A DNA stretch of 64,000 nucleotides, from assembly GCF_022846255.1 (NCBI RefSeq), contig NZ_AP025682.1. One strand, 5' to 3'. Positions 26,701 through 32,700 of this stretch are shown in pieces. The stretch comes from Escherichia coli. GTDB lineage: Bacteria > Pseudomonadota > Gammaproteobacteria > Enterobacterales > Enterobacteriaceae. A program made the position numbers. Within the stretch, counting starts at the first letter, position 1, and each line of letters opens with the position of its first letter.

Positions 26701-29700
26701 CAAAAACGGCAGCCGCATCGTCCGCCAGTGCGGCGGCGTCATCGGCATCATCTGCGTCTGCTTCAAAAGATGAGGCGACCAGACAGGCGTCAGCAGCGAA
26801 GGACAGTGCCACGACGGCATCCACGAAGGCGACAGAGGCTGCTGGCAGTGCGACGGCGGCAGCACAGAGCAAAAGTACGGCAGAATCCGCCGCAACGCGC
26901 GCTGAGACAGCAGCAAAACGGGCAGAGGATATTGCATCCGCCGTGGCGCTTGAGGATGCAAGCACGACGAAAAAGGGGGTAGTACAGCTCAGCAGTGCGA
27001 CCAACAGCACTTCCGAGTCACTGGCGGCAACGCCAAAAGCCGTTAAGGCCGCGTATGACCTGGCTAACGGGAAATATACCGCTCAGGACGCTACGACAGC
27101 ACAAAAAGGAATTGTCCAGCTCAGTAGTGCAACCAACAGCGCATCTGAAACGCTTGCTGCGACATCGAAAGCAGTGAAAGCAGCTAATGACAATGCGAAT
27201 GGTCGGGTACCTTCTGCCCGTAAGGTGAATGGTAAGGCGCTTTCAGCGGATATAACACTGACACCGAAAGATATTGGTACGCTTAACTCAACAACTATGT
27301 CATTCAGCGGTGGTGCTGGTTGGTTCAAATTAGCAACGGTAACCATGCCGCAGGCGAGTTCTGTTGTTTCAATTACGTTGATTGGTGGGGCTGGATATAA
27401 CGTCGGTTCACCTCAACAGGCAGGTATATCTGAACTTGTTTTGCGTGCAGGTAATGGTAATCCGAAGGGGATTACTGGTGCTTTATGGCAGCGCACATCG
27501 GCAGGGTTTACAAATTTTGCCTGGGTCAATACATCTGGTGATACTTACGATATTTACGTTGCAATCGGAAATTATGCGACTGGTGTAAATATTCAATGGG
27601 ATTATACCAGTAATGCCAGCGTAACGATTCATACGTCACCAGCATATTCTGCTAATAAGCCGGAAGGGTTAACGGACGGTACAGTTTATTCACTCTATAC
27701 GCCATCAGAGCAGTTTTATCCGCCTGGCGCACCAATCCCGTGGCCATCGGATACCGTTCCGTCTGGTTATGCCCTGATGCAGGGGCAGACTTTTGACAAA
27801 TCTGCCTACCCGAAACTTGCAGTCGCTTATCCGTCAGGCGTGATCCCTGATATGCGTGGCTGGACGATTAAGGGCAAGCCCGCCAGTGGTCGTGCCGTAT
27901 TGTCTCAGGAGCAGGACGGCATTAAATCGCACACCCACAGCGCCAGCGCATCCAGTACGGATATGGGTACGAAAACCACATCGTCGTTTGATTACGGCAC
28001 TAAATCCACGAATAACACCGGGGCGCATACGCACAGTCTGAGCGGCTCTACAAGCTCGGCCGGAGCACACTCGCACGTTGATGGTCGCAGGTTTAATACA
28101 AGCACTTTTAAAGACACCTATCAGTATGGTTCTACAGCTGTCGGAAGTAACTCATACCAGGTACAAGGGGCGGTTGGTCTGGGCATTGGCACGATGGCGA
28201 ATACGAACTCTGCTGGCGCGCATACCCACTCACTGTCCGGCACTGCTGCAAGCGCAGGTGCACACGCACATACTGTCGGTATTGGTGCTCATACGCACTC
28301 CGTTGCGATTGGCTCACATGGACACACCATCACCGTTAACGCTGCTGGTAACGCGGAAAACACCGTCAAAAACATCGCATTTAACTATATTGTGAGGCTT
28401 GCATAATGGCATTCAGAATGAGTGAACAAGCACGGACCATAAAAATTTATAATCTGCTGGCCGGAACTAATGAATTTATTGGTGAAGGTGACGCATATAT
28501 TCCGCCTCATACAGGTCTGCCAGCAAACAGTACCGATATTGCACCACCAGATATTCCTGCTGGCTTTGTGGCTGTTTTCAACAGTGATGAGGCATCGTGG
28601 CATCTCGTTGAAGACCATCGGGGTAAAACGGTTTATGACGTAGCGTCAGGGGACGAGTTATTTATTTCTGAACTCGGTCCGTTACCGGAAAATGTTACCT
28701 GGTTATCGCCGGAAGGGGAGTTTCAGAAGTGGAACGGCACAGCCTGGGTGAAAGATGCAGAAGCAGAAAAACTGTTCCGGATCCGGGAGGCGGAAGAAAC
28801 AAAAAACAGCCTGATGCAGGTAGCCAGTGAGCATATTGCGCCACTTCAGGATGCTGTAGATCTGGAAATCGCAACGGAGGAAGAAACCTCATTGCTGGAA
28901 GCCTGGAAAAAGTATCGGGTGTTGCTGAACCGTGTTGATACATCAACTGCACCTGATATTGAGTGGCCTACGAACCCTGTCAGGGAGTAATCATTGGGAT
29001 TATGCCGCAGCACGTCTTAAGCAAGAACGTGCTGCGGTTGGATGCTATTTTTTCCCTGAAGCGGAAAACATTACTACAGTACCTTGAACCTTGGTTTTAA
29101 CATTCTCGAAATGCTCTGAGAGTATATGTGTTAAGCCTTCTTCGGAATCTTTTGTGTTTGAAAAGATGCCTTTCTGATTGTAAATGCGCATCAGTTTTTG
29201 ACCGAAGCTATTGTGCACAACTCCATCGCCAAGAATTGTGGCTCCGTATAGAGTTCCATCGTCAGTTAAGGCCTGCGCCGCATTGCGTATTACACAGCTT
29301 TTTGTAGATATATTTCCAGGCAGACAGTGAAGAAGGTAAAACATGGAAATGGAATCAAATTGACCATGTAACGCCGCGGGATAAGGTTCAAAAACATCAT
29401 GGTTAATTTTATGTTTAATTTTTGATTCCCCAGCCCTTGTAGATGCCGCGTTCAGGCTAGCTTCGTTCAAATCCATTAAAGATATCAGACTACTCTCAGG
29501 TACGTGAGTAAGGTAAAACCCAGTTCCAACACCAATATCCAGATGGTTGTTACCTAAATGTTCCAGAAAGTGTGGAAGAAGGTGTTCCTTTGTAGGACAT
29601 CCCCATGCAAGCCGATTTGATACTCCCAAAACCCACCAGTCATAAAGCTTTAGGGTAAGTGGTGTGTAAATTTTAGCCCCATCATCTGTGTTTTTTTTCA

Positions 29701-32700
29701 TTAATTTCACCATGTTATAGTTTTATTTGTGAATTAAATCAATTATGGCGATGAATTACAAGGGGTTAAATGCTGCCGCAGCATAGCGATATTGAAATAG
29801 CCTGGTATGCTTCGATACAGCAGGAGCCGAATGGCTGGAAGACCGTCACCACACAGTTCTACATCCAGGAATTCAGTGAGTATATTGCGCCACTGCAGGA
29901 TGCTGTAGATCTGGAAATCGCAACGGAGGAAGAAAGATCGTTGCTGGAGGCATGGAATAAATATCGGGTGTTGCTGAACCGTGTTGATACATCAACTGCA
30001 CCTGATATTGAGTGGCCGGAAGAACCAGACACAATGTAAGCGAAAAAGAAAAACCGCAGACACGACGTATGCAGGACGTGCTGCGGTTGGCTGGTGAACT
30101 TTCGATAGTGCGAGTATTGAATGATTTCCAGCCGTTACCGATTTTACGTATTTTTTGTATGGGAGGATTTGCATCTCCTCCCACCGATCCTCCATGACTT
30201 TACGCCACAGTCTCTAGGACTGCTATGTGCCAATAGCAGACATCCACACAATTATGTAAAATAGGCTAGTGAGTCAGCATTCATGTAGTTCAGACCATCT
30301 ATAGCTGAAATCACGATCGCTTAACAGTGATTCACTCATAACTGCTAGCGAGCAATGTTCTTGTTTGAACCTCAAATTGAAACCACAAAATCGAAAGGTT
30401 AAATAATCGATTATCCAAATAGAAGGCAATTCAATGGGAAATCACGATTTTATTAAATATATTATATTATTTGGCTTGTCTGGGATAATGTTGGCTATGC
30501 TAGTGCTCTTTATTTCCTCTGTAGCATATTATTTTTTCACCCATAATAAAGGAGTTCTTCAGTATATAATTAAAACTATTTCCATAGGCCTTGTAACTAT
30601 TCCAGTCGCAATAATACTAATCGTTGCACTCGTCCATTATGTTGTCTGGCAAAAAGGGATTTCAACGGCATGGCGTTTTATATTCCACTCGACTAAAACA
30701 ACAACCGTGAATGATATTGCTAATGCTGAATCAGAAGATGTTATTGTTCACCTTGTTCATGGAACATTCGAGACGAATGCATCTTGGACACAACCTGAGT
30801 CAAAAATGTGCAAATCAATTAACTCAAGGAATCCCAATATTGGTATATCTCGATTTAAATGGGATGGCAAAAACTCTGCATCCTCTCGTAAACAAGCGGC
30901 ATATCAATTAGGAATGCATATTGATAACTCTCCTGCAAAATACAATTATATTATTGCACATAGCCATGGGGCAGCTATTGTAAGAGAAATGTCTTATTTA
31001 CGAAGTGATATTGCAAAAAAAATTCAAGGCGTATGTCTTTTGTCACCACCGTTCATCTTTCGACGTAGGATAAAAAGAACGTCAGGTACTTTAATTAATC
31101 TTATTGATATTAGCGGAACTTTGGCCATTCAATTGTTACTTGCAGCACTTTTTGTACCTTTGAATCTATATAATATTAATTATGCAGCAGTAATTTTTTT
31201 TGTTTCAATATTTGCAGAAATTATAATCTCCAAAAAATATAAAAAAGAATTTTTGCAGGAAGTTGAGAGTGGCGAGCACTGTGAAGCGGTTGATTTTAGG
31301 AATGTTGAAATTTATCACGCAATTGGTGATGAAGCCGATTCAGGCCTAAGATTTGTAAGTTCACTTCACGAAGGATGTTTTTCAATTCTTTCCCAGCTAA
31401 AAAAAGCTCAAGTAAGTCATAAAAAGCTAACACATTGGTCAGCAGTTTTAAGCTACCTATTTTATATTTCCATGAGTGTATTAATATGGTTCTTCTATCC
31501 TGAAGAAAAATCATGGATTATAGTATTATTAGTAAGCTTTGTATTAACTTCTATTTCTCACATTTGGCAAAGGTTGAAACCATCAAAGGATGTTCCTCAT
31601 GTTTTACTTATTGCAGCAATACCAGTTGCGATTTTTTCATTTTGGTTGGCTGTAGCTAAGGCCATAGCTTATGGAGATTTGCGATTAATATTTTGCCCGG
31701 AAGTTTTTATTGCATCATCTGAAACTCCAGCTGGAGATCATAAAGTTATTAAATTTGCTCCACAGAATGATGGTATATTAATACACTCAACACACTCGCA
31801 TCCGGAGGCTATAATTAATGTTTCTGAATGGTTATATTGCTCTGAGAATAAAAGGGTAAATGGTGAACCATAGATTAATATAACCACCATAAATTAATTT
31901 GTAATATACTTCCCTGCTAAATTCGCAGGGGAGTATAAAAATATACTAACTCAGTGGAGTCTTGTGCTGAGTTAGTACATGTTAACAAGATATTTATTCA
32001 CCACTAAATAATTAGCTAGAACAATAAGAATAATTTTGGGCAGTAAAGACAGGATGTAAACTACACTTATTCCAGTATGTTGGTTATCGTAGTTATATAT
32101 GATGAGCTCTAAAGTCCGCTTCTCGCTCATAACAGACATTCACTACAGTTATAGTAGAAGGTATGCATGCTGAGTGGGGAAAGTGTGAAAGAAAAGAAGA
32201 CTGCTGCGTCGTTTGTCGTCACGTTTATCTTCATTGGTTATGCAAGTAGTAATACAAGATGGGACAAAACTGAGGCACACATAGCTTTGTACTGGATTGC
32301 TAGGCTTTGTGCTCTTCGATAGTGGTTAAGGTGGATCACTCCACCTTTTCATCAATCCAGTCCGCCCACCATTGCATCATTTCTCTGCGTTTATCGAGAT
32401 ACTGAGCATGGTTGTAAATCCCACGCACAGATCCGCCGTTGGCATGTGCCAGTTGCACTTCAATAGCGTCAGCAGGCCATTCGTGCTCGTTCATAATTGT
32501 GCTGAATTCATGCCTGAATCCGTGACCGCTTTCCAGACCCTCATAGCCGATTTGTTTGATCACAAGCAATACCGCGTTCTCGCAGATTGGCTTCTTCTTA
32601 TCGTTGCGCCCGGCAAAAACAAACTCTGATACTGGTTTAGTGATGGAGCTTAGCGTAGTGAGAAGTTCAACCACCTGGTCTGACATAGGAACAACATGAA

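Follow-up and report, generated by a model that had tools for sequence, protein, structure and literature searches.

Two divergent low-GC genes at the integrase end of an argW prophage

We analysed a stretch of 64,000 nucleotides from Escherichia coli (contig NZ_AP025682.1 of assembly GCF_022846255.1; hereafter the window), focusing on two divergent genes that lie between the tail-fibre genes and the integrase gene of a lambdoid prophage. One encodes a class I S-adenosylmethionine (SAM)-dependent methyltransferase of 222 aa (29045-29713, minus strand) and the other a membrane-embedded, lipase-like protein of 479 aa that is predicted to be a serine hydrolase (30434-31873, plus strand). The original prediction, a reading of the sequence alone, had proposed that the pair forms an uncharacterised envelope-modifying or anti-phage module. 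Both open reading frames (ORFs) lie exactly where it had placed them, and the low GC content to which it had pointed is real and graded (0.405 for the methyltransferase gene, 0.342 for the hydrolase gene and 0.343 for the segment carrying it, against 0.524 for the whole window, 0.551 for the side tail-fibre gene stf and 0.472 for intS). The two are, however, independent cargo genes forming a mosaic: the methyltransferase gene is the known gene ybcY, while the hydrolase gene is carried on an AT-rich 1.9-kb cassette (30222-32137, plus strand) that has recombined into a variable slot between tfaX and intS. The hydrolase is a good candidate for a one-gene anti-phage system and is presented here as an experimental lead rather than as a demonstrated discovery.

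Both genes sit at the end of a lambdoid prophage that carries the tail-fibre and integrase genes. Its integration at argW is confirmed by the integrase IntS (32336-33529, minus strand), which is 99% identical to IntS of the K-12 prophage CPS-53 and bounds the cargo slot on the right, and by the tRNA-Arg(CCU) gene argW (33655-33729, minus strand), the integration site. The intS-argW-yfdC-mlaA segment of K-12 is 97% identical to window positions 32258-35830. On the left, the tail-fibre assembly gene tfa (28406-28990, plus strand, 194 aa) forms the edge of a block resembling tfaD-ybcY-tfaX of the K-12 prophage DLP12, followed by the methyltransferase gene and by a C-terminal remnant of a tfaX-like tail-fibre-assembly gene (29770-30039, plus strand, 89 aa), recognised through phrog_2341 and other tail-fibre assembly PHROGs and by comparison with K-12 tfaX. 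The layout that the original prediction had given for K-12, argW-intS-gtrABS(yfdGHI)-tfaS, is correct; neither of the two proteins studied here has a Pfam or NCBIfam match to GtrA, GtrB or a serotype-specific glucosyltransferase.

BLAST and pairwise alignments delimit the cassette clearly. A segment of strain TB06052 matches 30222-32137 at 99.6% identity, with similarity that begins and ends abruptly; besides the hydrolase gene, this block includes about 210 bp of upstream and about 260 bp of downstream sequence. A mosaic junction thus lies between the two genes at about 30222-30243. The divergent genes are 720 bp apart and, because this stretch holds the tfaX-like remnant and the junction, it is not a shared control region, so that the idea of a common transcription unit is also lost. 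Strain EC4 has the same flanks (up to 30243 and from 32110) with an unrelated 476-aa gene in between, which identifies the position behind tfaX as a cargo-swapping slot. Other occupants behind tfa-ybcY-tfaX are appY-ompT in K-12, a secreted hydrolase with OmpT in phage ev243, a 1083-aa protein in XJW9B263 and DinI in AF39, in agreement with the earlier view of this prophage end as a cargo (moron) position.

Fold and predicted active site of the 479-residue protein

The protein contains the segments VHLVHGTFE and IIAHSHGAAI, which include the LVHG and AHSHG motifs noticed earlier. In its AlphaFold2 (AF2) model (predicted local distance difference test score, pLDDT, 85; predicted template modelling score, pTM, 0.79), strands beta3 to beta8 follow the canonical order of alpha/beta-hydrolases. 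The Foldseek matches in the PDB belong almost without exception to this fold, namely thioesterase domains, FphH, Bacillus LipA, lipases of Pseudomonas and Burkholderia, and RavL, with the matched lipase structures being 1ex9, 1tah, 1ys1, 1isp and 3qzu; matches in AFDB form a set of unannotated membrane 'alpha/beta hydrolases'. At the sequence level the signal is fainter: a PDB profile match (E 7e-4) covers the N-terminal half of the catalytic core, from the HG motif to the nucleophile elbow, Pfam gives only marginal alpha/beta-hydrolase matches (E ~0.05), and searches of NCBIfam, PADLOC and PHROGs with the protein and 10 divergent relatives returned no match. A profile search of 1.8 billion representatives recovered 2,644 cluster representatives at E<1e-10 and 43 at E<1e-30.

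Conservation was examined in an alignment of 34 close homologues, extending down to 32% identity and showing many invariant residues, among them H109-G110-T111 and the AHSHG elbow, and in a superfamily alignment of 118 sequences (117 relatives and the query). In the latter, H109, G110, T111, W118, W143, N147, R152, H176, S177, H178, P206, D299, E300, P432 and H451 are invariant or nearly so, with H109 (117/118, Asn in one) and P432 each differing in one sequence; G110, S177, D299 and H451 are identical in all 118. Since these residues are invariant, the predicted catalytic triad can be fixed as Ser177-Asp299-His451, accompanied by an oxyanion-type HG motif and a lipase-type AHSHG elbow; His454, by contrast with His451, is not invariant across the superfamily.

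In the model, the first half of the catalytic core, defined from the alignments by H109-G110-T111 and the elbow A175-H-S177-H-G179 (30758-30964, plus strand), has H109-G110 directly after beta3 (aa 103-108) and the elbow directly after beta5 (aa 170-176), placing the codon of the predicted nucleophile Ser177 at 30962-30964 (plus strand). Beta6 spans aa 197-203. Asp299, the predicted catalytic acid (31328-31330, plus strand), lies in an invariant GDEA motif directly after beta7 (aa 291-296) and is followed by a long helix, alphaE, running into the fifth hydrophobic helix (aa 300-354). Beta8 (aa 424-429) precedes His451, the predicted catalytic base (31784-31786, plus strand), and the chain ends in a C-terminal helix (aa 457-475).

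Membrane helices at the lid positions

AF2 and hydropathy together indicate seven hydrophobic helices. The two N-terminal ones of the original prediction stand, and the later ones, estimated as at least four, number five. The former make up a hairpin of two transmembrane (TM) helices (TM1, aa 5-33, and TM2, aa 41-70; 30446-30643, plus strand) with conserved loop residues H37, G40 and K47, which a flexible low-confidence linker (aa 84-97) joins to the catalytic core. A second hydrophobic hairpin, TM3-TM4 (aa 219-240 and 248-268; 31088-31237, plus strand), follows beta6 at the usual lid or cap position, and helices 5 to 7 (aa 335-355, 359-379 and 388-412; 31436-31669, plus strand) lie between beta7/alphaE and beta8. 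In the model the hydrophobic helices are therefore found at the sites normally taken by the lids of alpha/beta-hydrolases and, because of this placement, the active site should open to the inner leaflet of the membrane.

The family-wide mean number of Lys and Arg residues per flanking segment is 3.9, 3.8, 4.0, 3.2 and 2.1 on the catalytic side and 1.2, 0.1 and 0.6 in the opposite loops, from which the positive-inside rule predicts a cytoplasmic catalytic side. An O-antigen or other periplasmic envelope-modifying role, as suggested earlier, is therefore disfavoured for the hydrolase. Helix 7 is highly conserved and contains Pro397, which is invariant. It probably re-enters the membrane without spanning it, a reading that follows from the helix count, since the parity comes out wrong with three helices between beta7 and beta8. 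Considering the model, the structural matches and this topology together, the protein is best described as an inner-membrane, lipase-like serine hydrolase of alpha/beta fold with predicted activity, belonging to an uncharacterised family, and on this point the earlier reading of a membrane-embedded alpha/beta-hydrolase is borne out.

The N-terminal hairpin is absent from 103 of the 118 aligned superfamily sequences (query included) and hence marks the clade found in phages and islands. A further set of residues is invariant only in this clade (D302, R306, S309, H312, E313, C315, F316, K409, D415, R417, K440, D446 and H454), clustering on helix alphaE (aa 302-316) and near the C-terminus (aa 409-455), where they could make up a regulatory or ligand site peculiar to the clade.

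Distribution of the cassette and its P2 slots

Amongst 5,426 complete E. coli genomes the hydrolase cassette occurs in one, TB06052, where a P2-like prophage carries it in the Z/fun region. The identical 479-aa protein is also encoded on many draft contigs, and in all 24 that were read the gene stands alone between the tail-fibre assembly gene G and the sheath gene FI of a P2-like prophage; the same lone placement is seen in TB06052 and at an IMG/VR locus (L019). The gene order of P2 is FI-Z/Fun-G, with Z, orf30 and TO being horizontally acquired regions (PMC3091744), and the fun locus is a second defence-enriched hotspot of P2, with three experimentally validated systems (PMC9519451). The usual E. 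coli home of the cassette is thus the Z/fun defence hotspot of P2-like prophages. Of two more distant IMG/VR homologues, one of 72% identity occupies the orf30 slot of P2, flanked by the genes for tail completion and baseplate V, and one of 50% identity adjoins a prophage integrase. A peptide-pattern scan of genome contigs for relatives yielded at least five loci, while tblastn of the protein against 50,697 records of isolated phages found nothing at E<=1e-5.

Neighbourhoods of homologues outside phages

Several homologues in other bacteria lie beside known or candidate defence genes. In Pectobacterium the gene is carried on an integrative and conjugative element beside Gabija, and in Curvibacter the order is integrase-hydrolase-Gabija-umuDC. 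The Proteus homologue lies in an ssrA island directly after a phage-tail fragment, with a CBASS 2TM effector and cyclase; that of Klebsiella michiganensis is about 1 kb from PD-T7-3; that of Burkholderia pseudomallei shares an island with HsdR, PDC-S28 and PDC-S35. In Dickeya, again in an ssrA island, the order is integrase-hydrolase-x-NACHT NTPase, with x an intervening gene, and the Chromobacterium homologue adjoins a 1313-aa CHAT-domain protein. Homologues in Kluyvera and Erwinia occupy ordinary chromosomal neighbourhoods. Systems recognised by PADLOC stand immediately beside the homologue in five of nine non-phage settings. The family accordingly resides in recognised defence hotspots or islands of unrelated elements (P2 Z/fun, orf30, Gabija twice, CBASS, PD-T7-3 and PDC-S28/S35), in line with the association anticipated between the hydrolase and anti-phage functions.

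The two juxtapositions with Gabija are independent of each other, since the GajA proteins of Pectobacterium and Curvibacter are recognised by different PADLOC models and, over the short segments that align, are only about 22-29% identical. In both, Gabija (GajB-GajA) is convergent after the hydrolase homologue (L014 10009-12673 in Pectobacterium, L028 10879-13993 in Curvibacter). The repeated adjacency may be due to chance within defence islands or to a preference that recurs; Gabija as an obligate partner was rejected on the two different subtypes and on the majority of loci, which lack it. No neighbouring gene was found to be conserved across the homologue loci examined, and the hydrolase therefore seems to act alone. 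Similarly, no methyltransferase was found among the genes immediately flanking the hydrolase in the other loci examined.

The methyltransferase is an intact ybcY

Window positions 28552-30016 are 97.7% identical in DNA to tfaD-ybcY-tfaX of K-12 DLP12, in the same order and orientation, which identifies the methyltransferase gene as ybcY, intact here and a pseudogene in K-12. It is thus not an undescribed gene, contrary to what had been supposed, although no functional study of it was found in the literature. It is present in 3,831 of the 5,426 complete E. coli genomes (71%) at >=95% identity and also in 15 isolated lambdoid coliphages; its relatives at 56-90% identity are widespread in Enterobacterales, including a chromosomal Salmonella copy outside any prophage. 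This Salmonella paralogue (56% identical; L036 5001-5663) lies between genes for a PMT_2-family glycosyltransferase and a cytochrome b561.

The protein carries SAM-binding motif I (LDIGVGTG, within HLDIGVGTGFY), as noticed in the original prediction, and matches Pfam families Methyltransf_12, Methyltransf_23 and Methyltransf_25 (Methyltransf_12 at E 2e-9) and phrog_2132 (E 3e-156). Its AF2 model (pLDDT 89) has class I methyltransferases as neighbours, the nearest solved folds in the Foldseek search of the PDB being bacterial phosphatidylethanolamine (PE) N-methyltransferase, juvenile-hormone acid methyltransferase (JHAMT), phosphoethanolamine methyltransferase, UbiG and natural-product methyltransferases. 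PE N-methyltransferase is the best of these, barely ahead of many other small-molecule methyltransferases. Amongst the top 50 PDB matches all identifiable enzymes are small-molecule or lipid methyltransferases and no nucleic-acid enzyme is recognisable. A search of the 222-aa protein for motif IV of DNA methyltransferases ([DNS]PP[YFW] or PCQ) found neither pattern, in keeping with the earlier remark that no such motif was visible. These two results speak against a DNA methyltransferase, whether of a restriction-modification system or an orphan. Weak NCBIfam matches to CpaM, RquA and PmtA are in line with a small-molecule or lipid type, and the single PADLOC match, to mad2, is weak (E 7e-4). 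The YbcY family may act on a membrane lipid or a quinone-like molecule. In summary, ybcY is a known gene of uncharacterised function, of small-molecule or lipid methyltransferase type, and independent of the hydrolase.

The gene travels with duplicated 3' ends of tail-fibre assembly genes. A direct repeat of 155 nt (92%; 28814-28968 and 29863-30017), corresponding to the tfa 3' end, flanks ybcY on both sides, and the tfa-ybcY-tfa' layout is also seen in K-12 DLP12 and in isolated phages. This bracketing, together with the recurrence of the layout elsewhere, suggests that ybcY was inserted, or can be removed, by recombination between tfa ends. A second short repeat surrounds the gene at 29024-29044 and 30073-30093. 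An Rfam match to IS009 (RF02111) at 28749-28947 (plus strand; 229 bits, gathering score 117) falls inside the 3' part of tfa and overlaps the left copy of the 155-nt repeat.

Other features of the slot and its surroundings

The 476-aa protein of EC4 (L002 7874-9304) and the 1083-aa protein of XJW9B263 (L039 6273-9524) each lie beside a P4-like integrase, and a PADLOC search gave no match for either; they are candidates for further uncharacterised cargo. The EC4 protein was checked as a possible relative of the hydrolase and is unrelated to it, as is the 494-aa 'alpha/beta hydrolase' of phage ev243, which is secreted and carries a signal peptide.

Downstream of the hydrolase gene, inside the cassette, an antisense ORF of 55 aa (31972-32139, minus strand) has a hydrophobic C-terminal half. 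The near-identical P2 copy retains it, with TTG as the start codon, and an intact form was not found in the more distant homologue loci; it was consequently rejected as a partner gene, being not conserved beyond near-identical cassettes. Its first 10 codons (MSxMSEKRTL) recur beside unrelated cargo in Klebsiella and EC4 loci.

The side tail-fibre gene stf (25572-28406, plus strand) has a long repetitive centre rich in Ala, Ser and Thr, with a GC content of about 0.61 and a strong AT skew, and His-rich repeats of the GAHTHS type in its C-terminal part. Long ORFs in other frames across this stretch are probably artefacts of its repetitive composition.

Interpretation

The location of the cassette and the company kept by its homologues lead us to consider the hydrolase as a prophage-borne defence or exclusion factor that acts alone, a role to which we would give roughly even chances. 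How such a factor might work can be sketched more tentatively, as one possibility that we hold to be rather less likely than the role itself: a triggered lipase, gated by its own membrane helices, that would combine sensor and suicide effector in one protein. In the resting state the membrane helices, including the clade-specific N-terminal hairpin as sensor or latch, would hold the enzyme closed. It would be opened when an infecting phage disturbs the membrane, be it through DNA entry, depolarisation or the insertion of a phage membrane protein, and the opened enzyme would cleave phospholipid of the inner leaflet of the inner membrane or another acyl-ester lipid there, so that either collapse of the membrane would abort the infection or entry of the genome would be blocked. 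In this scheme we infer the lipid substrate and the trigger, as well as the anti-phage role, and the topology follows from the positive-inside rule only.

Several observations weigh against a defence role or against this mechanism. No library ties the family to defence, with PADLOC-DB v2 giving no match for 11 diverse members, and the wider superfamily is large and may have a housekeeping role in lipid metabolism. The homologues of Kluyvera and Erwinia have no mobile or defence genes nearby, and the contexts make up a small sample of 13 independent settings, read without a formal background for comparison. Having three helices, an odd number, between beta7 and beta8 is at odds with a simple topology. 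A protein or a thioester, instead of a lipid, could serve as substrate; the best Foldseek match of the hydrolase is a thioesterase. Additionally, a consensus promoter scan of the 212 bp upstream of the gene found none, and promoter and terminator consensus scans gave results no better than those for shuffled sequence.

The large, widespread and unannotated superfamily, the plain chromosomal contexts in Kluyvera and Erwinia and the lack of a matching PADLOC model would also suit an enzyme of lipid metabolism, stress or host interaction that is carried as ordinary cargo, its proximity to defence genes being due merely to shared mobile elements; slots at prophage ends do hold genes such as those for OmpT, AppY and DinI. 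We regard this as unlikely, as the gene has landed repeatedly and independently in slots with published enrichment in defence systems, adjoins PADLOC-recognised systems in more than half of the non-phage settings, and carries an N-terminal hairpin that is specific to the clade of phages and mobile islands and missing in most of the superfamily. About as doubtful, perhaps marginally more so, is a constitutive exclusion or lysogenic conversion without cell death, where the enzyme would continuously remodel a lipid, lipid-linked or acylated component of the inner membrane, for instance by deacylation. That superinfecting phages would then fail in injection, or in their use of an inner-membrane factor, we likewise hold to be improbable. 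Such a role would agree with the intact and invariant triad, with the membrane-embedded nature of the protein, and with the slots that it shares with the phage-exclusion gene fun in P2 and with gtrABS in K-12 CPS-53. However, an inner-membrane lipase that is permanently open would be expected to be toxic, the predicted cytoplasmic position of the catalytic side is away from the periplasmic steps of O-antigen and most receptor modification, the homologues in non-phage islands adjoin systems of abortive type, and the tblastn search of isolated phages (E<=1e-5) gave no match, a result that covers P2 Fun only if P2 is among the records.

The two-gene module of the original prediction, including a variant in which YbcY would methylate phospholipid head groups and thereby control attack by the lipase in a lipid 'modification-restriction', is in our view very improbable. 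The genes are adjacent and divergent in the window, the best structural neighbour of YbcY is a PE N-methyltransferase, its weak NCBIfam matches include PmtA and RquA, and ybcY, being present in most E. coli genomes, would often be available to act in trans. Nevertheless, the two genes belong to different mosaic blocks with a tfa remnant and a recombination junction between them, and the structural match to PE N-methyltransferases is barely above that to many small-molecule methyltransferases. It is the distribution data that essentially refute the module: 71% of complete E. coli genomes have ybcY and one has the cassette, none of these genomes has both adjacent or covers >=80% of the combined region, ybcY is followed by many different cargos, and the hydrolase lacks an adjacent methyltransferase at every other locus examined, including those of Burkholderia, Curvibacter, Pectobacterium and Proteus as well as the 24 draft contigs. 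This negative result keeps the very common ybcY from being tied to a rare hydrolase. At the same time it draws attention to ybcY as an intact methyltransferase gene, of small-molecule or lipid type and uncharacterised function, in about 70% of E. coli genomes.

If the hydrolase is indeed a defence gene, its architecture, a lipase with membrane helices in the catalytic domain and no partner protein, is one absent from the libraries searched, and the protein would lend itself, as a simple system, to studies of phage-entry sensing by a membrane enzyme. It is conceivable, though we would not count on it, that the hydrolase is the first member of a new class of single-protein immunity against phages, in which the lid is made from the enzyme's own TM helices. 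Irrespective of function, P2-like and lambdoid prophages alike carry the 1.9-kb cassette behind tail-fibre assembly genes, which provides an example of cargo movement between them.

Comparison with known systems

The family I lipases of Pseudomonas and Burkholderia and LipA of B. subtilis resemble the hydrolase in their alpha/beta core, HG motif, nucleophile elbow and order of Ser, Asp and His. The elbow reads AHSMG in LipA and GHSHG in the P. aeruginosa lipase. These lipases are, however, secreted and soluble, with soluble lids, whereas the hydrolase has two and three hydrophobic helices at the lid positions and an extra N-terminal hairpin; the sequence similarity is marginal and the catalytic side of the hydrolase is predicted to be cytoplasmic.

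Amongst membrane-directed defence effectors, the patatin phospholipase CapV of CBASS and the TM effectors of CBASS and Pycsar share the logic proposed here, destroying the inner membrane of the infected cell. They are switched on by a nucleotide signal from a separate sensor or cyclase and the patatin fold differs from that of the hydrolase, which has no conserved partner; any sensing would therefore have to be built in. Rst_Hydrolase-3TM, from the P4 hotspot (Rousset et al. 2022), likewise combines a hydrolase with TM helices in a phage or satellite hotspot and is thought to act by abortive infection. It consists of two genes, for a HAD-like hydrolase and a separate transmembrane protein (PMC9122126). 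An identity with this system was rejected, since the hydrolase is a single polypeptide of alpha/beta fold with helices inside the catalytic domain and has no HAD match.

With respect to prophage cargo, gtrABS in K-12 CPS-53 occupies the same slot between intS (at argW) and the tail-fibre assembly genes, a classic position for lysogenic conversion, without homology to the hydrolase (glycosyltransferases and a flippase as against a hydrolase). In comparison with tfaD-ybcY-tfaX-appY-ompT of K-12 DLP12, ybcY is intact in the window and the lipase cassette replaces appY-ompT. P2 Z/fun and the other validated systems of the fun locus (Vassallo et al. 2022) share with the hydrolase the G-FI slot and the form of a single AT-rich foreign gene. 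The phage excluded by P2 fun is T5. Homology with P2 Fun was rejected on the tblastn search of the 50,697 phage records, which assumes that P2 is among them, and the hydrolase matches no PADLOC model, in a library that includes PD-T7-3 and the PDC candidates. Literature searches for a transmembrane alpha/beta-hydrolase defence system returned nothing relevant. The hydrolase is therefore put forward as a candidate whose architecture is not described in the sources searched, and which behaves like many single-gene cargo systems of P2 hotspots.

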